DNA of 64,000 nucleotides from Myxococcales bacterium. GTDB taxonomy: Bacteria; Myxococcota_A; UBA9042; JABWCM01; BTVJ01. Shown here one piece after another: positions 10,393-39,979 of the stretch; positions within the stretch are counted from its first letter, which is position 1, and each line of letters begins with the position of its first letter. The notes under the pieces are model-generated. The model was not told where the DNA came from. It searched no databases and was given only the letters and a program-made list of their open reading frames with translations. The stretch spans positions 64,001 through 128,000 of the forward strand of contig BTVJ01000011.1 in the NCBI GenBank assembly GCA_045863395.1, in the 5' to 3' direction. Position numbers and translations under genes: made by a program.

Positions 10393-10460
10393 GGGCGCTG
10401 GTCGTCGTTTCGGCCACCCGGGTCTGTGCACCGAGCGGGCCGGCCTCCAGCGGACCGCAA

Positions 10461-10620
10461 GGCGCCGGTGCATAATAACCTGATCCATCGAGGGCCCCGA
10501 TGCGCCCCGCTGGCAGTGTGGCGCGGCCGCAGGCAGGGCCTTGTCCTTCCAAGGCATCGCCAGGCTGCCAGCGGGGATGCACCGGGGGCCGAATGGCACA
10601 GGTTATTGTGCACCGGCGCC
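10461..10620. repeat. 160-bp imperfect palindrome (MITE/REP-like), arms about 63 bp
   Basis: Left arm ggcgccggtgcataataacctg...ccccgctggcag..tggcg pairs with right arm cgcca..ctgccagcgggg...caggttattgtgcaccggcgcc; the outer 22 bp have one mismatch. Confidence 0.85.
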
Positions 10621-10754
10621 CAAGGTCGACCGCCGGCCGGCAGAACGGCTCGTGCGCCCCCCGATTCCGGCCAGACTTTGGCCGAAACGATGACCGAGGC
10701 CCTCAGGCGTGAAGCGCCAAGCACCAGCGAGGATGGCCGCATGACCTGGATTCG

Positions 10755-11378
10755 TCATGGCGGATTGGCACCCTTGCCGCATTGCGGACTCATTGCCGTA
10801 ACGCTGAACGAACGGCAAAGCGGTTCGCAGACGTCGCCGTTTGGGCGGGTTGTGGAGGGGTCTGTCACAACACCGGAGACAGAGCCGTCGATTCCTGCTG
10901 CACTCCACTGCCATGTCACCTGATAAACGTCGCCACTTGTGACGGCAGCATCCTTCCACCAAAGCTCCAGGGTACCCTGACAAGTGCCCTCAACGGTCGA
11001 AGTCTCGACCGCGACAATGACCTGACACGCGGGACTCCTCGGGAGGACCATGCCAGCCGGATGGGTCCCATTCGAGTCCCTCCACTCGGTATCGCAGCAC
11101 CGATCCGCCAGACACGTGGTGACGTGAAGCGAGTCTCCGGCGACATGGGGGATCCTGAGGGTCAAGTGGAACTGTGGCCCACATCCCACGTTTCCGCAGT
11201 TGACCTCCGTTGCGCATCCGGTACTCACGACTAAAAGGGCCACGATGACAAGAAGGCTGTTGGCACGCCTGGGAATGTGCCACTGTCGAACTCGTTGATT
11301 GACCAGGCGTCCAATCAGGGCCACTGAACGCACTTGTGGTCCTGTGAGGAACCCATGGGCAGCCTCCGTAATCATCAT
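10755..11378 (-). CDS. Cys-rich putative lipoprotein
   Basis: LLVIVALLVVSTGC lipobox-like segment; CGNVGC and PNGDVCEPLC motifs; ATG overlaps the protease stop (ATGA). Confidence 0.6.
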   Translation of the reverse strand: MMITEAAHGFLTGPQVRSVALIGRLVNQRVRQWHIPRRANSLLVIVALLVVSTGCATEVNCGNVGCGPQFHLTLRIPHVAGDSLHVTTCLADRCCDTEWRDSNGTHPAGMVLPRSPACQVIVAVETSTVEGTCQGTLELWWKDAAVTSGDVYQVTWQWSAAGIDGSVSGVVTDPSTTRPNGDVCEPLCRSFSVTAMSPQCGKGANPP

Positions 11379-12592
11379 GGAATTGACTTGCGGACGGTCG
11401 CAACGAGAGACGTCAGGGCTGTGCCACCTACTGCCGAATTGAACTTCTTGATAGCGCCAAATACCGGAACAATGGAATGCTCGCCGGAGTGAACTGCCCC
11501 GATGACGGGACCGAGGAAACTGCTTGCCGGCCAATACATCGATGGAATGTCCTTGTCCGGGATGGACGGTGGGCGATGCGGTTTCGTGCTGCTTCCGAGG
11601 GCCGGGAAGTTGGGAAGCCAAAGGGGCGACCCTGAACTCTGAGCCGTGGTATCCATCCAGTGTTTGTATCGCGTACCCGTATAGGTGCCGCCCTTTGAAT
11701 TTGGCAAGGACTTGCTGTCCCAGTAGGATATGGACCCCTTCTGAAGAACCGGCGAGGTGCCGAGGACCGCAGGATAGCTCAGCATTGTGAACTTTAGACT
11801 CTGAAAGTCCAATAGATTTGAGGTGACATTGAACGTTCCCGCCCAGCCGACCCCTGGCTCGGAATCGAGGACTCCGACAGCCAGGTCCCAGTGGCCCATT
11901 GGGGAAGTCAGCGTGCCCTTGTCGATCGTGATCGCGTACCAGCTCTTGACGGTGAATGGATACACAACGGCCCCGGGTGCCATGCCAGGCCAGAAGACGA
12001 CACCAGAGGGGGTCTTGGAGATGCAGTGAAGTGATGTCACGATATGCCTTGGACCAACCAGGCAAGCCGTGCATCCAACGGGAGTAAGGAGACCGACCAA
12101 TTTGAAAGGCCACTTCGCCGGGTTCGCGAGCGTCCACTGTTCAGCGCCCGGATTCATGACGCTTGTGGGAACCGAGAACTCAAGCCCGCCGGGGACGGGA
12201 GCGAGCGGCGACGTCGTGCCCGCAGTATCAACGTCAACTTGGACGGAGAGCAGGTCCTCGTGACTAAGGAACTCGACGGCACGGCTGAAACGCGGAGAGG
12301 CTCCTATTTTGAGCGGAGCCGACGGCGGTTGTGCGTGTGTCGGGCTAGGGTGCGCCCGCGGTTGCAGGGCGTCTATGGAAGCCATGCTGTATGCAGAGTC
12401 GGCGGATATTTTCGGAGCTTCCGGGGCCGGGCCTCGTTGAACCACCCGCGGCGAAGGGTCCGGGTCCAGGAGAATGCCGGTCGCCGAGTACAGCGGGGGC
12501 CGGCGCCCGAACACACGCGGCGGCTGCACAGGCTGTGGCCCCGTCACCTCGGGGTCGTCGGCTGGATTGTATGGCGGCGGCACGATGGGCAT
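11375..12592 (-). CDS. Trypsin-fold (V8/glutamyl endopeptidase-like) serine protease with Pro-rich N-terminus
   Basis: Triad motifs CTACLVGPRHIVTSLHC, WDLAV, DTTAQSSGSPLW. Confidence 0.8.
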   Translation of the reverse strand: MPIVPPPYNPADDPEVTGPQPVQPPRVFGRRPPLYSATGILLDPDPSPRVVQRGPAPEAPKISADSAYSMASIDALQPRAHPSPTHAQPPSAPLKIGASPRFSRAVEFLSHEDLLSVQVDVDTAGTTSPLAPVPGGLEFSVPTSVMNPGAEQWTLANPAKWPFKLVGLLTPVGCTACLVGPRHIVTSLHCISKTPSGVVFWPGMAPGAVVYPFTVKSWYAITIDKGTLTSPMGHWDLAVGVLDSEPGVGWAGTFNVTSNLLDFQSLKFTMLSYPAVLGTSPVLQKGSISYWDSKSLPNSKGGTYTGTRYKHWMDTTAQSSGSPLWLPNFPALGSSTKPHRPPSIPDKDIPSMYWPASSFLGPVIGAVHSGEHSIVPVFGAIKKFNSAVGGTALTSLVATVRKSIP

Positions 12593-12726
12593 CTTCGGCT
12601 CCGCTTCGCCCGCCGGGCGGGCGCACAAGTCACAGGTTGCTCCCCGTAGCCATTCTGATCAAGCGATGTCCCCACCGTGGCCGCACCGGCGGCCCCCCAA
12701 GGCCCGCATCCGCTGCGGCCAGCGTC

Positions 12727-13043
12727 TCAGTTGGGCATCCGCTGCGTCAGGCGCACGACCACCGTGGCGTCGCCGCTCAGCTCCAGCCGCAGCGCGGCGT
12801 AGTTCGTGGGGACATGGACGATGGCGCTCGACCCGGCCTGCGCCGTACCCGTGGCGATGGGCTCGCTCCAGGGCGTGTCATCGTCGGCGACCCGGGCCCG
12901 CAGGGTCCAGGTAACCTCGGTCTCGGGAGCGAGATCTGGAGCTTCGCGTCCAGGGTGTTCTCCATGGCGACGGTGCAGGTGTAGACCTCCCCGTCGTGCT
13001 CCAGGGCTGGCGCTTGTCGTCCACGCCCCCCGGCGAGTACCAT
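12727..13043 (-). pseudogene. Probable frameshifted or truncated gene remnant
   Basis: Protein-like sequence EHDGEVYTCTVAMENTLDAKLQI continues in another frame as APETEVTWTLRARV...RLELSGDATVVVRL near 12930. Confidence 0.4.
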
Positions 13044-13063
13044 GGCCGGTCGGAGGTGTTCGG

Positions 13064-13489
13064 ATGCCGTTGGATTTGGAGAGCTTGAGGAAGGCCGTCG
13101 CAGCGCTGACCGCCGTCCAGGGGATGAGCGAGGATCCTGCGTTCATGGGGGCCCTCGACGAGGTCACCCAGACTGCGATCCGTTCGGGGGTCATCCAGCA
13201 CTTCGAGTTCACCTACGAGCTGTGCTGGAAGTTCGTTCAGCGCTGGGTCAATCTGAACGTCCCCGGAGAGGGGGGCGGCCTCCCCCGGAGTCGAAAGGAC
13301 CTGTTTCGGCTCGCCGCGCGGCACGGGCTCATCGACGACCGCATCGCCTGGTTCGGCTTCGGTGACGCCAGAAACCAGACCTCGCACACCTACGACGTAT
13401 CAAAGGCGCTGGAGGTGTATGAGGCGGCGGTGCGCTTCCTGCCCGAGGCGAGGAGCCTGCTTCTGCGGCTGGAGCAGCGCAGTGATTGA
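13064..13489 (+). CDS. HEPN / nucleotidyltransferase substrate-binding protein (HI0074 family), putative toxin
   Basis: IQHFEFTYELCWK, KDLFRLAA, RNQTSHTY (RX4HXY). Confidence 0.9.
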   Translation: MPLDLESLRKAVAALTAVQGMSEDPAFMGALDEVTQTAIRSGVIQHFEFTYELCWKFVQRWVNLNVPGEGGGLPRSRKDLFRLAARHGLIDDRIAWFGFGDARNQTSHTYDVSKALEVYEAAVRFLPEARSLLLRLEQRSD

Positions 13490-13784
13490 CCTTGCCGCTG
13501 AACACCTCGCCGAGGTCCGCCGGATCTTGTCCTTCCACGTGCCGGACTGCGAGGTGTGGGCTTTCGGATCTCGCGTGCACGGACGTTCACAGCGGTACTC
13601 CGACCTGGACCTTGCGCTGGTCGGGCCCGGGTCCCTGGGCCGCCGAGAGCTGGAGCGCCTTCGGGACGCCTTCTCCGCCTCGGACCTGCCCTTCCTCGTG
13701 GACGTGGTCGATTGGCACGATCTCTCGCCTGCGTTTCGCGAGGTCATCGAGCGGGGGTATGAGGTCATCCAGTCCGCACGATGA
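13482..13784 (+). CDS. Minimal nucleotidyltransferase (MNT), putative antitoxin
   Basis: FGSRVHG....SDLDLA (GSX10DXD), LPFLVDVVD; overlaps the HEPN gene. Confidence 0.9.
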   Translation: MIDLAAEHLAEVRRILSFHVPDCEVWAFGSRVHGRSQRYSDLDLALVGPGSLGRRELERLRDAFSASDLPFLVDVVDWHDLSPAFREVIERGYEVIQSAR

Positions 13785-13832
13785 GCTTTCGATGCCCCTG
13801 GCACTCCCCAAGGTGGCGTCAGACCGGGAGTC

Positions 13833-14699
13833 TCAGCGCTTCAGCAGCTCGATGGCGGCCGTCTTCTGCGTCTTCTCTCGCGCCGAGACTCCCCGCATGA
13901 AGGAGGGGTCGCCGACCAGGACGCCAGAGTCTGTCTGGGAGACGAAGACCAGCGCCCAGCGGCCGGTCTTCGTGCGGCCAAAGCAGACCTCGTCGTTGGT
14001 GGACCACTCCATGCACCCCTGGCGTTCGAAACACACGAGCCCAGCGTCTCGCGGCGCGACCAGCACCTTGTCAGCCACCCCGCTGCAGCCGTCCTCGTCG
14101 CTCGCCACCTTGCCTGCCTCGCAGAGCTCCCCGTCCTCGAAGAGCTTTGCTGCCGCCGCTCGCGCCCTGCCGCCCGTCAGCGTGCGCGCCTGTGTGACGC
14201 CCGGTGCATCGCTCGCGACGTCCTGGACGTCCCTCCACGTGATGAGCCCGAGCTTCGGGTCCACCACGTCGACGAGCCGCGCCGGGTCGGCGCAGAGCTG
14301 GGCCAGAACAGGCTTCTTCAAATCCACATCGAATGATTGCTGGAGCTTCAGGAATCGTGGGTCCTTGGAGATGGGGGCGAAGTCGCTGTCGTGCCGCGCC
14401 ACCGCGGCGAACCGCCGGGCGTCCGGAGTGCCCATCGCCACGAGGGCGTCGAGCTGCGCCATGGCGCCGTCAGCGTCCCCCGCCCGGGCGAGCTCGCACG
14501 CCAGGTTGTAGCGCGCCGGGGCGTATCGTGGGTCGGCCCCGATGGCCTCGCGATACAGGGCGGTCGCCTTGACCGCATCGCCGCCCTTGCGCGCGGCCAG
14601 CCCCTGGCGGTTCAGCGCCGAGGCGTCGGGCTTCGGTGATTGGGCCAACGCTCCCCCAGCAAAGAGGGCGATGAACACGACCGCAGCGATCCTGCACAT
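13833..14699 (-). CDS. Secreted TPR-containing protein
   Basis: Signal peptide (ALA-Q), TPR helices (ALYREAIGADPRYAPARYNLAC, DSDF). Confidence 0.7.
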   Translation of the reverse strand: MCRIAAVVFIALFAGGALAQSPKPDASALNRQGLAARKGGDAVKATALYREAIGADPRYAPARYNLACELARAGDADGAMAQLDALVAMGTPDARRFAAVARHDSDFAPISKDPRFLKLQQSFDVDLKKPVLAQLCADPARLVDVVDPKLGLITWRDVQDVASDAPGVTQARTLTGGRARAAAAKLFEDGELCEAGKVASDEDGCSGVADKVLVAPRDAGLVCFERQGCMEWSTNDEVCFGRTKTGRWALVFVSQTDSGVLVGDPSFMRGVSAREKTQKTAAIELLKR

Positions 14700-28885: not shown

Positions 28886-30124
28886 ATGACGGGCAAGCTC
28901 GCGCGCGTTCAGTGGAAGATGGGGCAGACGCTGCTGCCCGAGCACTTCATCGCGCAGGAGGACTCGCTCCTGGCGGACGTGTCTCTGCGGTATCGCATCC
29001 GGGGGCTGCCGTCCTATGGGGTGGCCGCGCTGAAGTGGAACCCGACGCTGATCGCGGAGGGGGTGCTCTCCGTGAGCGCCATGACCGCGGTCATGCCGTC
29101 GGGGCTGCTCATCGACGTGCCGGGCAACGCATCCATCTCGCCGCTGAACCTGAATGTGCCCGGAAAGCCCCAGATCGCAGCGTACCTCCACGTGCTGGAA
29201 GGAGGCGGCGACGCGGGCACCTCGGGCGGCTTCGACATGGACGCCTCTGTGCCCCGGGTGACCCACACCCTGACCCTGTCCTGCGACCCCACCTGCCCTG
29301 GCGCCATCGAGAGCCTGAAGCTGGCGGAGCTGCGCAAGGGCCCCGACGGGCTGTGGGGACCGTCCGACAAGTACGTGCCGCCGCTGCTCCAGGTGGGCAC
29401 CTCGCCGTTCTTGATGGCGGAGCTGGACGAGCTGGCCCCGGCGCTGGACGTGTTCCAGTACAAGCTGGCCATGGACTCGGCCAGCTACCTGAGCGGCGCG
29501 GCCCTCTACCTGCTGCGGGGGTCGTTGCGCAGCGTCTACCGCATGCAGCGGCTCATCGCGAACCTGAAGGGGCAGGTGCACCTGCACCCCTACCTGGTCT
29601 ACGAGGAGCTCAAGGACTTCTACATCGAGGTCTGCTTCTACCGGGGGGCGGCCCCGCGGGACGCGGCGGCGCCATACCAGCACGACAACCTGGCGTCCTG
29701 CTTCAAGAAGGTGCTGGACCCGCTGCGGGAGCAGATGCAGCTCGCCGAGGTCCAGTCGCCGTACCAGCCCTTCATGCTGCGCGACGGCATCCAGCGCATC
29801 GAGCTGCCGGGGGACGTGCAGCAGGCGCGGGAGGTCTACTTCCTGATCCAGAAGCGGGAGATGCAGCGGAGCGTGTCGCTCGGGGAGCTCAAGCTGGCGA
29901 GCCCCTCGCGCCTGTCCATGGTGCACAAGCTCGCGCTGGAGGGCATCCCGCTGCGCAAGACTGACCGCCCGGCCATCGCCCACTCCTTCGGGCCGGAGGT
30001 GGAGTTCTACCAGCTCGGACAGGGCGTGGAGTGGGACCACGCGGTGCGGGAGGACGCCGTGGCCTTCTACCACCGGCCCGACTATGACGGGCTCGAGTTC
30101 TACCTGTACTGGAACCGCGGCTGA
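28886..30124 (+). CDS. tssK: Baseplate TssK (IglD-like)
   Basis: RVQWKMGQTLLPEHF, YGV, YVPPLL, HPYLVY, YQHDNLASCF, LKLASP. Confidence 0.88.
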   Translation: MTGKLARVQWKMGQTLLPEHFIAQEDSLLADVSLRYRIRGLPSYGVAALKWNPTLIAEGVLSVSAMTAVMPSGLLIDVPGNASISPLNLNVPGKPQIAAYLHVLEGGGDAGTSGGFDMDASVPRVTHTLTLSCDPTCPGAIESLKLAELRKGPDGLWGPSDKYVPPLLQVGTSPFLMAELDELAPALDVFQYKLAMDSASYLSGAALYLLRGSLRSVYRMQRLIANLKGQVHLHPYLVYEELKDFYIEVCFYRGAAPRDAAAPYQHDNLASCFKKVLDPLREQMQLAEVQSPYQPFMLRDGIQRIELPGDVQQAREVYFLIQKREMQRSVSLGELKLASPSRLSMVHKLALEGIPLRKTDRPAIAHSFGPEVEFYQLGQGVEWDHAVREDAVAFYHRPDYDGLEFYLYWNRG

Positions 30125-30501
30125 TGGCGCTGTTCGACAAGTTCGCGCCCGCGGGCGGGCCCCTCGGGCGCGCCGCCGAGGTGGAGGGGATCCTCGAGAA
30201 CCTGGAGAACGTGCTCAACACGAAGCGCGGGTGGGGCTCGCCGCTGCCGGACTTCGGCATTCGGACGCTGACGGAGTACACCTCCCGCGAGGACATCGCG
30301 CGGGCGGTCATGGTGGAGATCCGGGAGTGCATCGAGCGGTACGAGCCGCGGCTGCGGCTGGAGGCGATCACCGTGGAGGAGCGGGAGCGCGCGCCCTTCC
30401 GCCTGTCGTTCACGCTGCGGTGCGCCCTGGTGGACGGCGCCCAGCTCGTGCGGGTGAGCGTCAACACGGTGTTCGGCAGCTTCGACGTCAGCCGGGACTG
30501 A
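30124..30501 (+). CDS. tssE: Baseplate TssE (gp25-like)
   Basis: NLENVLNTKRG..PDFGI...IERYEPRL. Confidence 0.9.
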   Translation: MALFDKFAPAGGPLGRAAEVEGILENLENVLNTKRGWGSPLPDFGIRTLTEYTSREDIARAVMVEIRECIERYEPRLRLEAITVEERERAPFRLSFTLRCALVDGAQLVRVSVNTVFGSFDVSRD

Positions 30502-30519
30502 CGGCCTGAGGGGACCACC

Positions 30520-31107
30520 ATGGCGCTGATGTGCCGGGTCGAGCTGAACAAGACCACGGGGATCACCATCACGGTGGACAACCCCGACGGCAAGATCACG
30601 CAGACGGTGACCATGGACGGCACCACCATGACCCTGACGGTCAAGGGGGAGTCGGACACCAGCACCATCACCCAGAAGGCGGACAGCATCGCCATCGCGT
30701 GCAAGACCTTCACTCTTGACGCGGAGACCGTCACGGTGAACTCCACCAAGGACACGCTGCACGAGAGCCAGGCGAAGTTCACGGTGAAGAGCGCGCAGGA
30801 CATGAGCCTCAGCACCGACGCCAAGCTGACGGCGGCGGCGACGGGGGACCTCGCCGCGAGCGGGGCGAACCTGACGGCGTCGGCGCAGCAGACCGCAGAG
30901 CTCAAGGGGACGGACGTGAAGGTCACCGGCACCAGCTCGGCCAAGGTCAAGGCGGCGCAGACCGAAGTGGCGGGCGACGCGCAGACCGACGTGAAGGGCG
31001 CCATGGTCAAGGTGGCGGCGTCCGCGACGCTGGATCTCGAGGGCCAGATGACCACGCTCAAGGGGCAGATGACCAAGGTCGAGGGGGCGCTGGTCAAGCT
31101 GGGGTAG
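30520..31107 (+). CDS. Stand-alone VgrG/gp5-type beta-helix spike
   Basis: 195 aa, Thr/Lys/Gly-rich short beta repeats (ELKGTDVKVTG, DVKGAMVKVAA, TLKGQMTKVEGALVKLG); no gp27 domain. Confidence 0.75.
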   Translation: MALMCRVELNKTTGITITVDNPDGKITQTVTMDGTTMTLTVKGESDTSTITQKADSIAIACKTFTLDAETVTVNSTKDTLHESQAKFTVKSAQDMSLSTDAKLTAAATGDLAASGANLTASAQQTAELKGTDVKVTGTSSAKVKAAQTEVAGDAQTDVKGAMVKVAASATLDLEGQMTTLKGQMTKVEGALVKLG

Positions 31108-31119
31108 CGGGAGACGGAC

Positions 31120-32730
31120 GTGTACTCGGACGAGCGGCTCTACAAGGCGTTCCTGGCGGAGATGCAGGCCCTGGAGGGGTTCCGGATGGCCTACGCCTCG
31201 GAGCACCCGGCCGCTCCGCTGGGGCGCGAGGACCCGGACGTGCGCCGGATGGTCGAGGCGCTGGCCTTCTTCGCGGCGCGCTCCCGGCTGGCGGGGCAGG
31301 GCAGCATCGCCGCCGTGCGCCGCCGCCTGCTCCGCCAGGTCCTGCCGTACCTGCTCGCGCCGCTGCCGGCCATGGGGCTCGTCCAGGCCACGCCGACGGG
31401 GCGGTTCTCGGAGACCGCGGTGCTGCCGCGCGGGACGGAGATGGAGCTGCGGGGCTCTGGAGCGTCTGCGATCTTCCGCACGCTGCGGGAGCTGCGGGTG
31501 CTGCCCCTGACCCTCGGGCGGGTCGACGCCGTGCCCAGGGCGGACGGGGGCACACGGTACCTGCTGCCCTTCCAGGCGCCGTACCCCCGCAACGACGCCA
31601 TCGGGCGGCTGTCCCTGCGGGTCGACTTCCTCGACGACTACCCCGCGTCCCTGTCCATGGTCCACGCGCTGCGGCGCCACCTGCGCGGCGTCAGCGTCTC
31701 CTTCGAGGAGCGCGTCGATGGCGAGACGCGGGGGGCACCCTGCCAGGTGAGCTTCGGGCTCGGCGCGGAGGACCTGGAAGAGGCGTGGCCCCACCCCATC
31801 GAGCGCGAGCGGGGGTGGTTCCAGTTCCCCGCGGCCGACCTGTTCATGGACGTGGAGGTCGCCGAGCCCCCGCGCAACTGGCGCCGCTTCGTGCTGTGCG
31901 TGGACGTGGACGCCGGGTGGCCTCGCGGGCTGAGGCTGTCGCGCAACGTGCTCCAGCTCTTCTCCGTGCCGGTCGTCAACGTGCAGCGCTGCATGTGCCA
32001 GCCCATCGTGGCGGACGGCACCCGGACGCAGCTCCCCATCCGCCACCCGCGCCCCGCCATGCGCATGGAGCTCCAGTCCGTCCACGGGGTGTACCGGGTG
32101 ACGGAGGGGGGGCTCGTTCCGCTGCGACCTGGCGCGCTGGCGGGGGGCAGCGGCTCCTACGAGCTCGCCCAGTCGGAGCTGCCCGACGGGCGGCGGGTGC
32201 ACGAGCTGTGGCTCCACCTGCCCGAGGCCTTCGTGGCGCCGGCGACGGTGGTGGTGGATGGGGCGTGGTGTCAGCCGTGGTTCCGCCCCTCGTCGGGAGA
32301 GAAGGTCGCCGTGGCGCCGTATCGGCGGGCCATCGCGGGGCTGGAGTGGGAGGTGGGCGGCTCCTTCGCCCCCTACCGCGCGGGGGAGCTGGATGGAGAC
32401 ATGGACGCGCTGATGCACGTGCTCGTGCTCCAGAACAAGAGCCGCATGGACCGTGACGACCTGGACACGCTGCTCCAGGGGCTCGGAAGCGTGTGGGCGG
32501 GGCCGTTCGCGGCGGTCCGGGCGCTGCTCGGACGGGTGGACGTGCGCGAGGTGCCCATGCAGCGGCCGGGCGGCCCGACCGGCGTCAAGCTGGTGTACGA
32601 GCTGCGCATGAGGGAGCACGAGGCGGGCCTGGACCCGCTGATCGAGGCGTTTGCCGGTCGGGTCCAGCGCATCCTGGACGCCTGGATCTCCGAGGCGCCC
32701 GTCGAGGTGCGGGTGGGGAGGGACGGGTGA
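31120..32730 (+). CDS. tssF: Baseplate TssF
   Basis: EDPDVRRMVEALAFFAAR, PYLLAPLPAMG, LFSVPVVN. Confidence 0.88.
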   Translation: MYSDERLYKAFLAEMQALEGFRMAYASEHPAAPLGREDPDVRRMVEALAFFAARSRLAGQGSIAAVRRRLLRQVLPYLLAPLPAMGLVQATPTGRFSETAVLPRGTEMELRGSGASAIFRTLRELRVLPLTLGRVDAVPRADGGTRYLLPFQAPYPRNDAIGRLSLRVDFLDDYPASLSMVHALRRHLRGVSVSFEERVDGETRGAPCQVSFGLGAEDLEEAWPHPIERERGWFQFPAADLFMDVEVAEPPRNWRRFVLCVDVDAGWPRGLRLSRNVLQLFSVPVVNVQRCMCQPIVADGTRTQLPIRHPRPAMRMELQSVHGVYRVTEGGLVPLRPGALAGGSGSYELAQSELPDGRRVHELWLHLPEAFVAPATVVVDGAWCQPWFRPSSGEKVAVAPYRRAIAGLEWEVGGSFAPYRAGELDGDMDALMHVLVLQNKSRMDRDDLDTLLQGLGSVWAGPFAAVRALLGRVDVREVPMQRPGGPTGVKLVYELRMREHEAGLDPLIEAFAGRVQRILDAWISEAPVEVRVGRDG

Positions 32731-33053
32731 AGGGGGTCCTGCGCGATCTGCTGTCCCCCGAGCGGGTGCGCCGCTCCTGGGCCGTGGAGGAGCCTGCCGC
32801 TCCGGTCGTCCCCGCCGACGAGGCCGTGGCGCTGGTCTCCGAGCTGCGGGCCATGGTCACCGCCCAGCTCCCGGGGGAGGACGGGCTCCTCTGCATGGTG
32901 GACCTGCTCGCCCAGAAGGTGGCGGCCTGGGACGCCACCCGGGGAGGGGAGGGCGGCATGGGGGCGGCGGACATCGAGGCCCTCGCCTCCCGCATCGGCG
33001 ACGTCATCGACGCGCTCACGGTGGCGGGGCGCAGGCGCGGAGGGCCGGAGTGA
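32727..33053 (+). CDS. Small helical hypothetical protein inside the baseplate operon
   Basis: GTGA overlap with the tssF stop and TGATG overlap with the tssG start; 108 aa. Confidence 0.65.
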   Translation: MKGVLRDLLSPERVRRSWAVEEPAAPVVPADEAVALVSELRAMVTAQLPGEDGLLCMVDLLAQKVAAWDATRGGEGGMGAADIEALASRIGDVIDALTVAGRRRGGPE

Positions 33054-33940
33054 TGGGCCCGGGGGCCATGTCGCCGGAGGAGCGGCGGAGAGTCCAGCAG
33101 CGGGTGGTGCAGCGGGCGCCGTCCATGGAGATTCCGGCGCTGCTGGATCTGCTCTCGTGGCTCGGCTGGCACGCGGACGAGGTGCGCTTCGTCAGCCCGC
33201 CGTCGAGCGTGTCCCAGCCGGGGATGATCGCCGGGGTCGAGTTCGTCGATGAGCCGCGTCACGTCAATGTTCTCTTGAATATCGGGTTGCTCGGCGCGCA
33301 GAGCCCGCTGCCCAGCTACTTCTTCAAGCGCATGGACCAGATCGGCTTCGACTCGGGGCACTTCGCCGAGTTCATCGGCTTCTTCGACCACGCCGCGCTC
33401 GTGGATCTGCTCCGGGCCATCTACCCCGAGATTGACGTCCGTCTGTACCCGGACTGGGAGAGAGCCAAGCGGCGAGAGGTTCAGCTCCTGAATCTGCGAT
33501 CCACGTCGACCTTGACCTGGATGCTGCGGTCGGTGTTCCCGGATCTCGGGGTCGTCATCGACAAGGCGACGGTCCTGCGAGAGATCGAGTCGGGCGGCGT
33601 GCGCCTCGGGAGCGCGACCCTCGGCGGAGACTCCGTGCTGGGGCGGAAGGTCAGGATCCCCGTCCAGACGCGGCAGATAGTGCTCGTCGCCGAGACTGAG
33701 CGCGCCGCGAGCGGGCTCGCCTGGCCATCCGAGATTCGGGAGCGGCTGGTCCGCATCGTCTTCCCCATCCTGGCTTCGGTGGGGGTGGACCTCGACATCC
33801 ACCTGGAGGTGCGGGCCCAGGAGACCGTCGCGCGCCTCCACGGGGGCAGCTATCTCGGCTACGACCGCGTGCAGGGCGGCGGGGCCAGCTTTCGCAGGAT
33901 ACGGATCTACTCGGGAAACACGGCGCTCCACCCGTCGTAG
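33053..33940 (+). CDS. tssG: Baseplate TssG
   Basis: IGLLGAQSPLPSYF, FIGFFDH, RLGSATLG...LG. Confidence 0.85.
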   Translation: MGPGAMSPEERRRVQQRVVQRAPSMEIPALLDLLSWLGWHADEVRFVSPPSSVSQPGMIAGVEFVDEPRHVNVLLNIGLLGAQSPLPSYFFKRMDQIGFDSGHFAEFIGFFDHAALVDLLRAIYPEIDVRLYPDWERAKRREVQLLNLRSTSTLTWMLRSVFPDLGVVIDKATVLREIESGGVRLGSATLGGDSVLGRKVRIPVQTRQIVLVAETERAASGLAWPSEIRERLVRIVFPILASVGVDLDIHLEVRAQETVARLHGGSYLGYDRVQGGGASFRRIRIYSGNTALHPS

Positions 33941-33969
33941 CGGGGCGCCATTTGGGAAAGTGAGGACTC

Positions 33970-34989
33970 ATGGATCTGAGCACACTCCAGCGGTCGTTCG
34001 CGGTGACAGAGAGTCCGGGGCTGGACACCCTCGACCCGCGCATGGGGGAGATCTCCGACCGTGTGCAGGGGGGAGACTTCGTCGGGGCGGCGGAGCAGGT
34101 GCTGGGGCTGCTCGACGAGGGCATCTGCGACATGCGCCTCATCGGGTATGCGGCCTTCGGCGCGTTCGTCGACGGCGGCGTCGCGGCCCTCCTGCCGGCC
34201 ATCGTGGGGCTGACGCACATCCTGGAGGACTGCTGGGAGGCCTTCGGGCCGGTGTCCCAGCGCGAGAAGGGGTGCCAGTCGAGCCTGACGTGGTTCGCCA
34301 AGCAGACCATGAAGCGGCTCCAGCGGGAGGAGGGGGTCCAGGGCGGAACGTGGGCCGGGTGGATCGCGTCGGTCACTCCCGATGACGTGGAGACGACGGT
34401 GAGGCGGCTCGGGCGGCTGCAGGGGGCCGTGGACGAGCGGCTCGGGGGGGGAGCGGCGCCGGTCCTCGACGGGCTGAGCAAGCTTCGGAGCTGGCTCGAC
34501 CAGTTCAAGAACGCGGTGCCGTACCCCGAGGAGGAGCCGGAGGAGCCGGAGGTCCCCGAGGTCCGGGAGGAGGCCGCGGCGTCGGACATGCAGCCGGCTC
34601 CGGCAGCGGCCTCGGCGCCGCCCCCGGGGTGGGGCGTGCCCACGTCGTGGACGCCGCCGGCCCCCCTGCTCGCGGCCCAGGGCTCGCCGCACCTCGCGCT
34701 GCTGCTGCGCAAGCTGGAGGCGTTCAGCCAGCTCGTGGAGCGGGAGGAGTTCGCCCGGGCGCTGATCGTCGCCGACGACGTCAACGAGACCCTGGAGCGC
34801 TTCGACCCCACGCTCTACTTTCCGTCCTTCTTCAAGGTGTTCGCGAGGATGCAGGCGCTCCACGCGAGCCAGCTCATCGAGTTCGCGGAGTATCGGGAGA
34901 CGCCCGAGTGGCGCGCGCTCCAGACCCTCTACCGCATCGACGTCGACGAGTTCGTGAACCTGCAGTCGCAGCGCAACGACCCGGAGTGA
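33970..34989 (+). CDS. IglI-family / TssA (ImpA-N)-like T6SS protein
   Basis: DMRLIGY, GLTHILEDCWEAFGP, SLTW (ImpA-N-like); Pro/Glu linker; helical C-domain FDPTLYFP. Confidence 0.65.
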   Translation: MDLSTLQRSFAVTESPGLDTLDPRMGEISDRVQGGDFVGAAEQVLGLLDEGICDMRLIGYAAFGAFVDGGVAALLPAIVGLTHILEDCWEAFGPVSQREKGCQSSLTWFAKQTMKRLQREEGVQGGTWAGWIASVTPDDVETTVRRLGRLQGAVDERLGGGAAPVLDGLSKLRSWLDQFKNAVPYPEEEPEEPEVPEVREEAAASDMQPAPAAASAPPPGWGVPTSWTPPAPLLAAQGSPHLALLLRKLEAFSQLVEREEFARALIVADDVNETLERFDPTLYFPSFFKVFARMQALHASQLIEFAEYRETPEWRALQTLYRIDVDEFVNLQSQRNDPE

Positions 34990-35001
34990 CGGTCCCGCGG
35001 C

Positions 35002-36897
35002 TCAGACCTGCTGCTCCACCCGGTCCAGCTCCGCGAGGGCCGTCGACCGGGCCGTGGCGATGCGCGCGATGGCCTGCTCGACGAGAGAGTCCACCTGCGC
35101 GAGCAGCGGGTCGAGGGCGGCGGCTCCTTGCGCGTCCAGACCATCGGCGGCGGAACGAATCCCCCCCAGGGCAGCGTCCTGAGCAGATGTGACGGATTGG
35201 AGCTGCGCGGCGAGCTGCGCCCTGGTCTGCTCGGCGCCGGCCTCGAAGCCCGACCGCGCAGTCTCCATCGCCTCGCGAATGGCGCTGAGGGTTTGCGTCG
35301 CCGTCGCCTTGCCCGCGTCCAGCGCCGCGTCTGTCTGGGTGCGCGCCGTCGCGGCCTGCGCAGTCATCGTGTCTCTCGCAGAATCGAGCTGGGCGCGCAC
35401 TCCGTCGATGCCCCCGCTCGTGCCGCTGCGGAGCTGAGAGAGGGATCCGTCGGCGGTGGTCGAGAGCGCGTCGACCTGCGCGGCGGCCTGCGCCTCGATG
35501 GAGTCGATCTGTGTTGCGGCCTGGGATTTTGCGGCCTCCACCTGCGAGATGGCGCCGTCCACGGTCTCCTGAATCTGGGTCTCGATCGCCCCGACCTGCT
35601 GCTTGACCGTGTCGACCACCGCCCCGATCTGGGTGACGAGCTGCTCGCGGAGCTGGTCTATCTGTGTCGTCGCCTGGGATGACAGGGTCTCGATCTGACC
35701 GCCGATCTGGGTCTGGAGCGTGCCTACCTGCGTGATCGCCGTCTCGGCGGCAGACTGGAGCTTCGGGGCCATCTGGGAGGAGACGTTCGAGATGGCGGAT
35801 TGAACCGTCGAGACCAAGGCCTCGGGCACCGCGTCCGCGGGGATCGCGTCCAAGGCGTTCAGCGCGGTGGTCAGCGTAGACTTGAGCAGGTCGAGGAAGC
35901 CCTGGACCTTCTCCTGGAGCGCAGCGAGGGCCGTCACCACGGCCTCGAAGGAGGTCATCAGCGTGTCGCGGAGCTGGGTCACGGCGGCGAGGAGGCCGTC
36001 GATGGTGGCAGACGCGGCCTGGATCGCTGCGTCCGCCGTCTCCCGCAGGCCCTGCACGGTCGCCGTGACCGCGGTCACCACCTGCTGGATCGTGGACTCG
36101 GCCGTGCCCACCACCTGCGCGATGACCGCCTTGGCGTCTCGCAGCGCCGAGCGCACCGTGTCCACCGACGCCGACAGCGACGCGCCGGTCTGGTCCACTG
36201 CCTGGCGGACCGGGGCGATGGCGGCGCGCAGGTCCTCTTTGGTGGTGGCGATGGTGCCCGCCAGGGATGTCGCCAGGGCGTCGAGCTGCTCCGCCGGCGG
36301 GTCCACCGTGTCGTCCAGGGCCTTGCGGACGGCCACGGCGCGGGCCTTCAGGTCGTCGACGGTCGTCGTGACGCTCTCTCTCGTGGTCGCGACCGCCTCG
36401 TCGATGGTCTCGAGGAGCACGTCGAAGGGGGTCAGACCCTTGGTCTGGAAGTCCTCGCTGGCGGCTCTGGCGGTCGCCACGGCGGTGTCGAGGGAGGCGC
36501 GTCTCGACGCGAGGGAGGAGTCCACCCCGCCGAGGGCGTCTGAGAGCTCCTTGTCGATGGCCCCGAGAGTGCCGGTCGTGGCCTCCCGCGTCGCCTCGAT
36601 CTGGGCGGCGAGGGCGTCCAGGCGCTGCGCCTCGTTCGGGGCCGCTGCACGCCGCGCCTCGACGCGGGCGCTCACACCGGCGCACCGCTGCTCCACCTCT
36701 CCCGACGTGGTCTGCGCCTCCGCGGAGACCTGTCCCGCCGCCCCTTGGAGACGACCGGTGACCTCGCCAGCGCGGGCGCCGACCTTCTGCGCCGCTTCTT
36801 CAACGAGCGCGGTGAGCGAGGCGGCGCGTCCGGCGAGCTCGTCGCGGGAGGTCTGGGCGTCGGCTCTCACGGCCTCGATGGGGGTCCAGAGGCTCAT
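35002..36897 (-). CDS. Long Ala/Thr/Gln-rich amphipathic helical repeat protein (tape-measure- or apolipoprotein-like)
   Basis: 631 aa, few aromatic residues, 11-residue repeats interrupted by 7-residue units. Confidence 0.75.
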   Translation of the reverse strand: MSLWTPIEAVRADAQTSRDELAGRAASLTALVEEAAQKVGARAGEVTGRLQGAAGQVSAEAQTTSGEVEQRCAGVSARVEARRAAAPNEAQRLDALAAQIEATREATTGTLGAIDKELSDALGGVDSSLASRRASLDTAVATARAASEDFQTKGLTPFDVLLETIDEAVATTRESVTTTVDDLKARAVAVRKALDDTVDPPAEQLDALATSLAGTIATTKEDLRAAIAPVRQAVDQTGASLSASVDTVRSALRDAKAVIAQVVGTAESTIQQVVTAVTATVQGLRETADAAIQAASATIDGLLAAVTQLRDTLMTSFEAVVTALAALQEKVQGFLDLLKSTLTTALNALDAIPADAVPEALVSTVQSAISNVSSQMAPKLQSAAETAITQVGTLQTQIGGQIETLSSQATTQIDQLREQLVTQIGAVVDTVKQQVGAIETQIQETVDGAISQVEAAKSQAATQIDSIEAQAAAQVDALSTTADGSLSQLRSGTSGGIDGVRAQLDSARDTMTAQAATARTQTDAALDAGKATATQTLSAIREAMETARSGFEAGAEQTRAQLAAQLQSVTSAQDAALGGIRSAADGLDAQGAAALDPLLAQVDSLVEQAIARIATARSTALAELDRVEQQV

Positions 36898-36901
36898 CGC
36901 G

Positions 36902-37123
36902 TCACTCCGCCATCGCTGTCAGCTCCGCGATCAGCGTCTCGACCTGGGATGCCACGTCGTCTTTGGCCGCGCGGGCCGTCCCTCCGAAGCCCGCGAGCGG
37001 CGTGAGGTCGGGCGCGAGGGCCTCGATCTCGGCCTCCACCACCCCCACGCTGGCCCCCAGCTCCTGGACCGCGGTCTCCACCGCTGCACCGATGCCTTCC
37101 ACCTTCGCGAAGAGCCCCGCCAT
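36902..37123 (-). CDS. Small helical-hairpin protein
   Basis: 73 aa, packed 1 nt after the hub gene and 4 nt before the repeat gene; same composition. Confidence 0.7.
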   Translation of the reverse strand: MAGLFAKVEGIGAAVETAVQELGASVGVVEAEIEALAPDLTPLAGFGGTARAAKDDVASQVETLIAELTAMAE

Positions 37124-37124
37124 G

Positions 37125-39050
37125 CTACAGCTCCGTCCGTGTGCGCAGCTCCGTGATCGCCGCCGTGGCAGCGCTCGCCAACGCTGCGGCGTGCCCGGTC
37201 AGCGCCGCCGCCGCCCCTTGCAGGTCCCCCTTGGCCGCCCCCGCGAGCGCGCCCAGCTCTCCCTTCAGCGCGTCCACGGCGCCCCCCACGCTCGCCTTGG
37301 CGTCCTCCAGCTTCCCGGTCAGCTCTCCTTTGGCGCTGGCGAAGGCCCCGCTGATGCGCCCCACCGAGCCGCTGGCCGCCGTCTCCAGCTCCGCGGAGGC
37401 CGCGGCGACCTGCGGGCTCAGGTCAACGGTGGGAGCCTCCTCGGTCGCCGACTCGTCCTCACGCACCTCCATGAAGAGGAGCCCTTCCTCCATCTGGAGC
37501 GTCTCTCCGTCGGCGCCCCGCACCCGCCGCACGGTCCAGACCGGCTTGTCGTCCACGTAGACGTGCTCCAGGGCCGTCTCGTCTGCCGCGTTCTTGCCAA
37601 ACAGGATGCGGTTGCCCTGGGTCTCCAGCGGGAGCTGGACCCCCGCCGTCCACTGGAGCGTCCGCACGATCTCGGCGCCGTGGAGGTCGAGGCGCACGAG
37701 CACGCGCTCGTCTTTTGTCAGAGGCGCGTAGAAGTGGCCGCGCATGACGGATGGGCGGAACGGGGCGCGGACCTCCTGGTTCCAGAGCGGCACCAGCACC
37801 TCGTAGAACCACTCGCCGGTGTCCGGGTCTTCGTGGACGGCGTAGATCCGGTCTCCGGGCTGCCCCCCGTCACAGACCACCTTGCCCTCCACGAGGAGCG
37901 GCTCCGGGGGCTCGGCGCGGGGCGGCAGGTGGGTGGAGAGGTCGGCCGCCGACTCCCACACGGAGGCCAGGTCCAGCGTGTATGTGCGGGCCGTCGTGTC
38001 CCGGTCGCGGCTCTCCAGCGGGTCGGTCGCCTCGGCGCGCAGGTCCACCGAGAGCACGCGGAACGCCTTGCCCCGCGGCCAGGCAGCCCCGGCGAGCCAC
38101 TCCTGCGCCAGTGAGACGGGGCGGCCCGGCGCGAACGGGACGCTCGGCCAGGTGGAGTAGACCACGGAGAGCTCCGGGGCGCGCAGCCTCAGGCGGGTCG
38201 TCTCCAGCTCCACCCGGTCGTCCAGCGTGACGCTCAGCGGGGTGATGACCAGGTGGTCCTCGGTCACGCCTTCGACCGCCTGGTCCTGCGCGACCTCCAC
38301 CGTCGCCGGTTGCTCGGCGGCCCCGTTGTGGACCCGCGCCTTGCTGCGGCGGGTGGCGGGCAGACGCAGGGTGGCCCTGCCCACCTCCGTTCCCCGAACA
38401 GTCCGCGCGGTGCCCCCCGGCTTGCGGTCGCGCAGCGAATACTCGCCGGTGTCGTGGTCCAGCAGCAGGTGGCCCCCCGCGCCGTCCACCCAGTCCACGA
38501 GCAGATCGTAGAACGACGTCCCCCGCGAGGCGTCGAGCGGCAGGCACACCACGTGGTGGGTCACACCCGCGCTCGCCATCTCGATGTTCAGCTTCAGGCC
38601 CCCGACCGCCTGCTCGCCGACGACGTCGGCCACCGTGGCCTCGGCCCGCAGCACCGCAGGGAAGTGCTGGCGCCACAGCACCTGCGCCGGGTCGGTGAAG
38701 TGAACGGTGTACTCCCGGGTCAGGACCGGCGTCCCGGACACGTCGGCGAAGGCGAACTCACGGACCGCTCGCGAGGTCGCGAGGGCGCGCACGACGAGCG
38801 GCTCGGGCTGCGTGTCCACGAGCGGGAACTCTCCGTTGAGCGTCAGCCGGACGTCCGCGCGGTCGGGGGTCACGAAGCGCGGAAGGAGCGCGTCCTCGGC
38901 CTCTTCGCCATGCACGACGAACGTCACGGAGCCGTCGAGGCCCCACAGGCGGAGCCGCAGGTCGCAGGCGCGCACGTTGCCGCCGGGGATGGCGAAAACG
39001 TCGCTCCCGATGGTCAGCTCCACACCGATGCTGAGCCTGTCGGCCGCCAC
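37125..39050 (-). CDS. VgrG gp27/OB-fold hub protein (PdpA-like role) with C-terminal helical extension
   Basis: YTVHFTDP.QVLW, SFYDLL, P.LVEGKVV, VLVPLWN, GHFYAPLTKDERVLV; no beta-helix; GTG start after AGGAG. Confidence 0.7.
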   Translation of the reverse strand: MAADRLSIGVELTIGSDVFAIPGGNVRACDLRLRLWGLDGSVTFVVHGEEAEDALLPRFVTPDRADVRLTLNGEFPLVDTQPEPLVVRALATSRAVREFAFADVSGTPVLTREYTVHFTDPAQVLWRQHFPAVLRAEATVADVVGEQAVGGLKLNIEMASAGVTHHVVCLPLDASRGTSFYDLLVDWVDGAGGHLLLDHDTGEYSLRDRKPGGTARTVRGTEVGRATLRLPATRRSKARVHNGAAEQPATVEVAQDQAVEGVTEDHLVITPLSVTLDDRVELETTRLRLRAPELSVVYSTWPSVPFAPGRPVSLAQEWLAGAAWPRGKAFRVLSVDLRAEATDPLESRDRDTTARTYTLDLASVWESAADLSTHLPPRAEPPEPLLVEGKVVCDGGQPGDRIYAVHEDPDTGEWFYEVLVPLWNQEVRAPFRPSVMRGHFYAPLTKDERVLVRLDLHGAEIVRTLQWTAGVQLPLETQGNRILFGKNAADETALEHVYVDDKPVWTVRRVRGADGETLQMEEGLLFMEVREDESATEEAPTVDLSPQVAAASAELETAASGSVGRISGAFASAKGELTGKLEDAKASVGGAVDALKGELGALAGAAKGDLQGAAAALTGHAAALASAATAAITELRTRTEL

Positions 39051-39250
39051 GAGCGCGCTCCTGGGTGCAGGGGTCCGGGCGCTGAAGATACCGGCCTGGG
39101 CGGGGGCTGTCCATCGGGGAGCGCGCCGGTGCCGCGACCGAGGAGCGCCGCTCGCGCCCCCTGCTGCCGTGCCCGGCGGAGCTACGCGCCTTGTCGCAGC
39201 ACGGGCAAAGCCGTACAGTCGGCGTCCACACCAGACCGGATGGAGGACCC

Positions 39251-39979
39251 ATGGAGTGCCGCAAGTGCCAGACGGACCTGACGGGGGTCGAGCACCGCAT
39301 GGTCGCGCAGTGGCCATTCTGCGTCCCCTGCTTCGAGGAGCTGCTCTCCACTCCGAAGCCAGCGCCACCCGCGGAGGAGCCCGCGCCCGTGGTGGCCTCC
39401 GTGGCGGTCGTCGAAGCAACCGCCACGGTCGAGCCGGCCGCTGGCGTGCGGGTGGCCACCGCCGAGCCCACGCTGACCGCCGACGTCGCCACCTGCCGCC
39501 TCTGCGAGGGCGTCTTCCCCGCCTCCGACATGGTGCACCTCGGCTTCTGGCGCTTCTGCCCGGCGTGCATCCAGGACGTGGTGGAGAACCCCGAGCCTCC
39601 GCCGGCGCTCGCCGTGGAGGCGCACGAGGACCGCCCGGAGCCCATCCGTCCGGCTCCGCTGGTGTGGGTCAACTGCGCCCGCTGCGGCCGCCGCGTCCCT
39701 GACGGGGGCGCCAAGCGCATCGACGGGGAACCCTACTGCCCGGACTGCCACCACGCGCTGGCTCCGCCCCCGCCGCTGCCGGACCTCGCCGCCCTGGCAG
39801 CGCCGGAGCCCGGAGCCGCCGCAGGCTCGTGCGAGGCCTGCGGCCGAGAGACCCCCGGCGAGACTCCCCTGCGCGTCGAAGCCTACCGAATCTGCCGCGC
39901 CTGTCTGCGCTCGGACCCGGACCTCGCGCTGGAGCTGGCCGCGGTGCGCCACCGTCGGCAAGGGGCGGCCCCGAGCTGA
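39251..39979 (+). CDS. Protein with four CxxC...CxxC zinc-finger repeats
   Basis: CRKC/CVPC, CRLC/CPAC, CARC/CPDC, CEAC/CRAC separated by Pro/Ala linkers; GGAGG RBS. Confidence 0.8.
   Translation: MECRKCQTDLTGVEHRMVAQWPFCVPCFEELLSTPKPAPPAEEPAPVVASVAVVEATATVEPAAGVRVATAEPTLTADVATCRLCEGVFPASDMVHLGFWRFCPACIQDVVENPEPPPALAVEAHEDRPEPIRPAPLVWVNCARCGRRVPDGGAKRIDGEPYCPDCHHALAPPPPLPDLAALAAPEPGAAAGSCEACGRETPGETPLRVEAYRICRACLRSDPDLALELAAVRHRRQGAAPS

Follow-up and report, generated by a model that had tools for sequence, protein, structure and literature searches.

What does a very long, entirely helical protein do beside the spike of a contractile injection machine? This question was raised by a window of 64,000 nucleotides (the whole stretch of DNA analysed here, G+C 71%) from contig C11 of a myxobacterial metagenome-assembled genome (MAG) of 8.8 Mb that was 97% complete. 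Convergent to the core operon of a type VI secretion system (T6SS), the window carried three open reading frames (ORFs) that encoded a spike hub of 641 aa, a protein of 73 aa and a protein of 631 aa, called hel below. An earlier note on this DNA had assumed a canonical system (T6SSi) and had proposed that hel was either a ruler of the sheath or a membrane-active cargo attached through the tail of the hub. Our comparison with homologous proteins showed that the hub tail, the 73-aa protein and hel are the separated parts of one C-terminal extension on a PdpA/VgrG-like hub.

A hub extension divided among three genes

An alignment of 14 members of the 631-aa family (A2) was used for an exhaustive profile search of 1.84 billion representative proteins. 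The search retrieved stand-alone proteins of ~620-720 aa and seven proteins of 1349-1361 aa, each of them a distinct 50%-identity cluster. In these seven ~1350-aa chains, the hub core (residues ~2-535) was followed by the tail (~537-639), by units resembling the 74-aa homologs of the 73-aa protein and by hel (~725-1350), that is, in the same order as in the window. The fused proteins were found on several independent contigs, and continuous ORFs of 1351 and 1354 aa were confirmed in the genomic DNA of two genomes. Moreover, there were two-gene forms in which the 74-aa unit was joined to hel, namely P0024 (720 aa) and ORFs of 707-763 aa at Myxococcus-, Corallococcus- and Sorangium-type loci (L038, L042, L028 and L075). 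Relatives therefore possessed an extension covalently continuous with the hub, as expected of an evolved hub, and in the window the extension was distributed over three coupled genes.

Tail and hel also occurred together almost without exception. The counts were limited to hubs with at least 2.5 kb of downstream sequence, and the genome tallies given here were samples. The hel gene followed 35 of 38 tailed hubs (34 by script; the hub at L036, missed through ORF overlap, was added). The remaining three tailed hubs (L061, L063 and L065) bore different tails, that of L063 being Pro/Thr-rich. After short hubs hel was scored only once in 27 cases, and the exception (L030) was a frameshifted tailed hub. 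The attachment through the hub tail that had been proposed earlier was strongly supported by this near-perfect co-occurrence and by the seven collinear chains.

A word-index homology search with the 631-aa protein gave nothing at E <= 0.001. Given the relatives retrieved by the exhaustive profile search, we ascribed this to the limited reach of such an index with low-complexity queries. When 41 relatives were searched with the same protein, one weak and probably compositional match was obtained (in G020). The ESM Atlas search was uninformative (scores <= 0.79; the protein's own model had a predicted local distance difference test value of 0.43).

A sequencing frameshift or assembly error as the origin of the three ORFs was considered and rejected: the split was kept in complete genomes and in an independent DNA contig (run X2) that spanned 34800-39271 with 4 substitutions and 0 indels. 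The junctions between the genes read TAG-C-ATG and TGA-CGCG-ATG with GGAG upstream of each, which indicates tight translational coupling. Both junctions were bridged by RNA-library contigs X6 (35962-37234) and X9 (36454-38251), and these contigs, from two metatranscriptome libraries, were weak evidence for co-transcription of the three genes. The ends of RNA-library contigs at 39071 and 39057 lay near the putative hub promoter, a similarly weak indication. Gene starts at high-GC loci were taken from ORF scans. In the case of the hub, the scan had over-extended the gene to 764 aa (P0003), and we placed the true start at the GTG at 39050 (641 aa) since AGGAG precedes it, third-position G+C rises there and the database cluster is equally long. 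A homologous ORF of 72-74 aa was conserved at the same position in relatives.

The 641-aa hub had no match in Pfam, NCBIfam or PHROG, and the over-extended ORF had none in the PDB by phmmer. A profile of the hub family gave a single PDB match, Francisella PdpA (6u9e_A, E 1.6e-7, 115 residues). The ESM Atlas model of the hub (predicted template-modelling score, pTM, 0.71) aligned to Phage_GPD/Phage_base_V VgrG clusters with template-modelling (TM) scores of 0.59-0.67 over ~450-510 residues. These comparisons showed a VgrG-like gp27 plus gp5-OB fold, as predicted by the model, and a sequence link to PdpA. The hub also shared with PdpA its synteny with small VgrG, IglI-family, IglG and IglE genes. 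According to two publications, the spike of Francisella is built from PdpA and a small VgrG, the counterparts of gp27 and gp5 of T4 (PMC5924787, PMC9600919). In the present family the hub came in two forms, one of ~540 aa and one of ~640 aa with a helical tail of ~100 residues. The last conserved hub residues looked like beta-strands; short hubs stopped exactly there, and tailed hubs ran on through a conserved linker, P-T-x-D-(V/L)-S-P-Q-V.

The system was Francisella-type (T6SSii-like), and the earlier T6SSi framing had to be given up. This assignment followed from the IglI-family and small VgrG-like proteins and from the presence on the same contig of IglG, DotU, IglE and TssM, which were located 9.6-16.3 kb beyond the window end (C11:137596-144285) and ~36-45 kb from the core operon. 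The small VgrG-like protein of 195 aa matched the Francisella small TssI/VgrG model weakly (E 2.3e-4). The IglI-family protein also had a weak match to the TssA model TIGR03362 (E 4.7e-6, residues 41-220), suggesting that it may contain an ImpA_N-like cap or assembly domain. The system was spread over ~55 kb, with the tail-less hub isolated from the other genes. In the related cluster of Archangium gephyra the full set was encoded, including IglG, IglE, DotU and TssM.

Table 1. Coordinates of the hub, its extension and associated features (window positions)
Feature	Position	Strand	Remarks
T6SSii-like core operon: TssB, TssC, Hcp/IglC-like (238 aa), TssK, TssE, small VgrG-like (195 aa), TssF, TssG, IglI-family	25782..34989	+	convergent to the three-ORF locus
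IglI-family protein	33970-34989	+	NF041244, E 1e-73
hel, 631-aa all-helical hendecad-repeat protein (P0001)	35002..36897	-	distal piece of the hub extension
Conserved core of hel			roughly residues 320-490; takes in the AIPAxxxP turn (P353, P358) and the invariant-Gln ladder
73-aa protein (P0002)	36902..37123	-	single copy of the ~50-residue helical repeat unit, separately expressed
Helical C-terminal tail of the hub	37125..37445	-	residues 536-641 and stop codon; absent from ~540-aa hub paralogs
Hub core, residues 1-535 of P0004	37446..39050	-	VgrG-like gp27 + gp5-OB fold (predicted); remote PdpA relative
Sigma-70-like promoter match	39085..39113	-	upstream of the hub start; weak
Tail-less hub paralog, 545 aa	54046..55683	-	48% identical to the hub core

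The helical repeat and what it resembles

The hydrophobicity spectrum of hel had a single sharp peak at a period of 3.60, far beyond chance (z = 26, 500 shuffles; none of 200 shuffles matched it). Sub-regions peaked at 3.60-3.63, and the signal was coherent along all 631 residues. In the BLOSUM autocorrelation, peaks occurred at lags of 7 (z = 6.1), 11 (10.3), 18 (8.5), 22 (8.8), 29 (9.7) and 40 (9.0) residues, with a further one at 33. The pattern is one of hendecads interrupted by heptads (11 + 7 = 18 residues for every 5 turns), and a single 11-residue register was held over nine repeats at residues 384-482. The parse into 11-mers and 7-mers that the earlier note gave for the C-terminal third was present in the translation, and the repeat proved to extend over the whole protein rather than only its last third. 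The same note had ascribed the composition of hel to the hub tail and the 73-aa ORF as well, and we found the same repeat in both: the 73-aa protein had a best period of 3.53 (0 of 200 shuffles matched it) and the tail (residues 536-641) a weaker periodicity (3 of 200). The hub core had no helical periodicity, its value being reached by 193 of 200 shuffles. The hel gene did not contain DNA-level tandem repeats, and the repeats are therefore old.

A profile of the 74-aa family matched ~12-14 times along each fused extension. Thus, the small 73-aa ORF is one ~50-residue repeat unit. As it carried this unit and was fused in-line in relatives, the idea that it was an immunity protein or a chaperone was rejected.

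The composition of hel was dominated by Ala (21%), Thr (11%), Gln (9%) and Leu (9%), with 2.1% Lys, few aromatic residues, one Cys and a net charge of -33. Its hydrophobic stripe was narrow (V+I+L+M+F+W ~23%). Stand-alone members of the family varied from 626 to 985 aa; the differences were charged repeat blocks inserted in the N-terminal third, and records titled Archangium alone had lengths of 753, 811, 869 and 985 aa. Hydrophobicity was highest within the most conserved stretch (~320-380), which also contained the motif L..A..L(E/D)AIPAxxLPKPLV with P353 and P358 invariant. The Pro-containing turn IPADAVPE, seen earlier near the middle of the protein, was located here at residues 352-359. 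It was followed by ~130 residues that had no conserved Pro or Gly and carried invariant Gln at 397, 401, 408, 412, 423, 452 and 463. Since these are spaced by 4, 7, 4, 11, 29 and 11 residues, they would lie on one face of the helix, beside the I/V/L stripe.

No transmembrane-like segment was found in hel by a Kyte-Doolittle scan, whose maximum 19-residue mean was 1.2 (at residues 288-338), and the scan detected no hydrophobic helical hairpin of the kind present in ClyA- or colicin-type pore formers. The Pfam and NCBIfam models revealed neither an enzymatic domain nor a pore-forming-toxin family.

We then considered the resemblance of hel to known helical proteins. The Pfam Apolipoprotein model (PF01442) scored 79.6 bits, below its gathering cut-off of 90, so that hel was not assigned to this family; Baculo_PEP_C passed its cut-off of 38 with 60.7 bits, which was uninformative. 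In the PDB, the best matches of the hel-family profile were ApoA-IV (3s84_A, E 3.4e-11), ApoA-I and apolipophorin III, followed by weaker ones to the heptad repeat 1 (HR1) of coronavirus S2, the ZorA tail and reovirus sigma-1. By phmmer, the 631-aa protein itself gave weak apolipoprotein or designed-helix matches only. Tape-measure PHROGs matched the family members as well (phrog_5493 and phrog_305 14 of 14, phrog_4200 13 of 14; best E 8.7e-22), and the Pfam scan found no match of PF10145 (PhageMin_Tail) in hel. Apart from the hub-associated proteins, the A2 profile retrieved heterogeneous giant repeat proteins of the Apolipoprotein/Baculo_PEP_C type, and 17 of the 18 scanned matched PF01442 and one matched PF10145. 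We took all of these resemblances, those to tape measures and apolipoproteins included, as a shared 11/18 repeat style rather than as demonstrated homology.

Distribution and candidate roles of the extension

The hub family was found at 64 species-representative genome loci (L003-L066) and nine metagenome loci (L069-L077), always in T6SSii-like clusters. Most of the genome loci belonged to Myxococcota, and the others were titled Aliikangiella, Paraglaciecola or MAGs of Planctomycetota, Desulfobacteraceae, Desulfurivibrionaceae and Syntrophobacter. The T6SSii-like clusters at the 64 loci encoded IglI-family, IglG, IglE, small VgrG and PdpA-like hub proteins together with recognisable TssE, TssF and TssG. 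In clusters of the Myxococcaceae/Archangiaceae type, the gene of the short hub was flanked by those of TssE and the small VgrG; the tailed module followed IglE in convergent orientation. The family was present in 9 genomes of a 401-genome sample from the phylum of the window. With three candidates scored per genome, the hel profile matched at least 7 of the 401; three of these seven matches (G088, G169 and G359) were set aside as probably unrelated repeat proteins, and G169 and G359 had no hub.

Five genomes were reached through short-hub loci. In four of them hel was not found (E <= 1e-8, all candidates scored), and each of the four had one kind of hub (G408 at two identical loci). The fifth genome, G409, had hel at a cluster end and a tailed hub with a 72-aa ORF on another contig. 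At the other extreme, the only hub gene of the 99% complete genome G049 encoded the fused form of 1351 aa and lay immediately upstream of the small VgrG, TssF and DotU genes. G303 had only a tailed hub with hel, and G135 had a short and a fused hub. Thus, the hel-less short-hub genomes on the one hand and G049 and G303 on the other indicated that the extension is optional in the family, yet compatible with use as the sole hub. Its presence alongside a small VgrG needle argues against the extension replacing the needle.

Another sole-hub extension, the 1034-aa ORF of G107 (L089:12021-15125), was examined as a candidate for the same module and rejected, as it had no hel-profile match. It consisted of a Lys/Glu linker, poly-Ala/Gly repeats and Ala/Gln/Lys helical repeats, with a Pro-rich end that may partly be ORF over-extension. 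G382, which has a similar open frame, probably carries the same unrelated Ala/Gly/Lys-rich extension. It therefore seems that long helical C-terminal extensions arose more than once on this hub family. At L063 and L065, the small VgrG-like domain formed the N-terminal part of large proteins (1587 aa, L063:11851-16614; 1568 aa, L065:11897-16603). The remainder of the 1587-aa protein was of Pro/Gly/Ser/Thr-rich low complexity, and its gene adjoined that of the hub with the Pro/Thr-rich tail.

With respect to function, we leaned towards the reading that the tail, the 73-aa protein and hel make up an 'evolved hub' extension of ~810 residues in three coupled genes that is fired with the spike as a non-enzymatic payload. 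The pieces would reassemble by helix bundling on the hub trimer. Because the conserved part of the hub apparently ends in beta-strands at which short hubs terminate and from which the conserved linker continues, the extension would emerge from the hub at the foot of the small-VgrG needle. It may then sit around the spike inside the baseplate and be expelled with it on firing, and it would not set the length of the sheath. Less certainly, it may act non-enzymatically through its conserved core, that is, the most hydrophobic segment, the Pro turn and the ~130-residue Gln-ladder helix, and the likeliest site of action would be the envelope or membrane of the target.

Just upstream of tssB there were two effector-like genes. 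The product of one (19597-21864, + strand) was 755 aa long and had a Peptidase_M91 'effector protein' domain; that of the second (22917-25547, - strand) comprised 876 aa and combined a DUF294 nucleotidyltransferase domain with a SidM_N domain. The domains of these genes hint at a eukaryotic target. No immunity-like gene was found beside the module: hel abutted the convergent IglI gene in the window and the IglE gene in other clusters, and the neighbour of the fused hub was the small VgrG gene. The conserved hydrophobic segment, turn and Gln ladder, together with the missing immunity gene and the nearby eukaryote-type effector-like genes, led us to a weak preference for an action on the target envelope that is not enzymatic. 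The acidic charge, the narrow stripe and the lack of a hydrophobic hairpin argued against classic models of lipid binding or pore formation, as in the membrane-active half of the earlier proposal.

Several observations weighed against a fired payload. Each T6SS cluster had exactly one module and genomes with two clusters had two (L003/L027 and L042/L043). Over the same genome pairs, hel was 41-71% identical, to be compared with 42-85% for TssM and 53-83% for the hub. In G049 and G303 the fused or tailed form was the only hub form. One module per cluster, TssM-like divergence and sole-hub use fit a structural part as well as a conserved payload. A role at membranes was further opposed by the strong acidity, the narrow stripe and the missing hairpin of hel. 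The RNA contigs X6 and X9 were both from one study, and such libraries can contain DNA. On this evidence, the payload was not clearly favoured over a structural part.

The main rival was accordingly a structural role in the producer, which we regarded as possible but less probable. The extension could be an assembly accessory that stays with the machine, where it would dock the hub, or stabilise it, within the baseplate or the membrane complex, or would reach through the membrane channel as a trigger or antenna. Inheritance of one module with each cluster, co-divergence of hel at TssM-like rates, sole-hub use in G049 and G303, the lack of an adjacent immunity-like gene and the lack of a Pfam or NCBIfam enzymatic domain all agree with such a role. 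It is harder to reconcile with the many T6SSii-like clusters that have a tail-less hub only, including the four of five searched genomes in which hel was not found. Moreover, clusters of the Myxococcaceae/Archangiaceae type and the window genome also keep a tail-less hub, which is the pattern of an alternative, cargo-bearing spike, and anything attached to the spike hub of a T6SS leaves with the spike on firing.

A bolder reading, which we considered unlikely, was that a T6SS lineage has kept or re-invented a tape-measure-like part. In this case, a trimeric hendecad rod of ~800 residues, tethered to the hub covalently or by reassembly of the split pieces, would be ejected and would refold at the target envelope as a conduit or membrane-breaching device. 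The conserved hydrophobic segment, Pro turn and Gln ladder might then resemble to some extent, in their action, the heptad-repeat hairpins of viral fusion proteins, among which the HR1 of coronavirus S2 was a weak match of the hel-family profile. If true, the T6SS would thereby gain its first translocon-like or tape-measure-like component.

Also unlikely was a tape-measure-like cargo in the lumen of the tube, namely a hub-tethered trimeric helical rod ejected as a conduit into the target envelope that does not set length. The 11/18 periodicity is a feature of phage tape measures, tape-measure PHROGs matched all 14 family members, and hel had one Cys, few aromatics and no enzymatic domain, all of which would suit such a rod. 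A precedent was available in Tme of Streptomyces davawensis, described in a passage of PMC11126660 as a tape-measure-related protein acting as an effector of a contractile injection system (CIS). Against a luminal position, the extension joins the hub C-terminus after the OB-fold and beta-strands, which by analogy with VgrG topology would be the needle side; hel also had no transmembrane-like segments and no PF10145 match, and its resemblance to tape measures was one of repeat style.

Finally, a true ruler that sets the sheath or tube at ~95-120 nm, the other half of the earlier proposal, was very improbable despite the tape-measure-like sequence style and the attachment to the hub, because the module is dispensable (hel was not found in four of five genomes searched with a short hub only, nor within the 10-kb flanks of many loci), repeat expansion, even within Archangium, gives it lengths between 626 and 985 aa, it is attached at the hub C-terminus on the predicted needle side, and the cluster encodes an IglI-family protein with weak TssA similarity; a tape measure is expected in every system of its type, and a passage of PMC5924787 stated that T6SS of classes 1-3 have no tape measure and that their sheath length is limited by the cell.

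Two further observations concerned the surroundings of the locus. A Cys-rich zinc-ribbon protein with multiple CxxC motifs was encoded divergently from the hub gene (39191-39979, + strand); its homologs were located inside the T6SSii-like clusters L048, L051 and L052 and directly after a tailed hub with a 72-aa ORF in L093. It is thus a possible accessory gene of T6SSii-like systems. Positions 10001-14000 of the window had a G+C of 0.62-0.67 against a background of ~0.71-0.73 and may represent a foreign island.

Significance and comparison with known systems

We found no description of a helical hub extension in the literature outside subscription journals on T6SSii in Myxococcota or Deltaproteobacteria or on T6SS tape measures, VgrG and coiled coils. 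According to a 2026 review (PMC13584744) and to PMC12955703, T6SSii is confined to Francisella; PMC5924787 states that a tape-measure-like part is absent from T6SS of classes 1-3. The present results describe a Francisella-type system, found widely in Myxococcota and also in several other phyla, that bears a hub variant with a very long helical chain in the style of tape measures, naturally divided into one, two or three genes. This natural split-protein series can be used to study the attachment of long helical cargo to the spike of a contractile injection machine, and culturable carriers that are not pathogenic (Archangium, Cystobacter, Hyalangium and Myxococcus species) offer a setting for studying cargo loading on a two-protein spike of the PdpA/VgrG type.

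The closest known system is the PdpA-VgrG spike of Francisella. Yang et al. (2019) reportedly described it as a central spike of two proteins (PDB 6u9e/6u9f/6u9g), and the title of that work names an N-terminal helical lid. Both systems have a separate hub of the gp27/OB type, a very small VgrG (195 aa here) and a cluster of the IglI-family/IglG/IglE/DotU/TssM type. However, the hubs here are only ~540 aa long, and hub residue 96 aligns to PdpA residue 304. This offset, with the conserved hub N-terminus at residue 1, suggests that the extra ~200 N-terminal residues of PdpA are absent. In addition, tailed hubs carry ~810 further helical residues at the C-terminus, either fused or split, and the clusters also have recognisable TssE, TssF and TssG.

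The tape measures of phages and CIS, as well as Tme, are similar to hel in being long, hub-associated helical proteins with periodicity of the 11/18 type, in line with the PHROG matches of all 14 members. In contrast to them, hel has no PF10145 match, no transmembrane segments and no C-terminal enzyme domain, is variable in length, is joined to the hub C-terminus and is dispensable in related systems. With the exchangeable apolipoproteins (ApoA-IV, ApoA-I and apolipophorin III) it shares amphipathic helical repeats of 11/22 residues, but it is an acidic and Lys-poor protein with a narrow hydrophobic stripe that belongs to the bacterial cytoplasm and to a secretion machine.

Evolved (specialised) VgrG proteins of T6SSi carry C-terminal effector or adaptor extensions. 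As in these proteins, the extension described here is optional, is usually found in a genome beside a plain paralog and would place cargo on the spike. Unlike them, it has no enzymatic domain, consists of a helical repeat array of 700-1100 residues, occurs in one-, two- and three-gene forms and is conserved as one copy per cluster without a neighbouring immunity gene.

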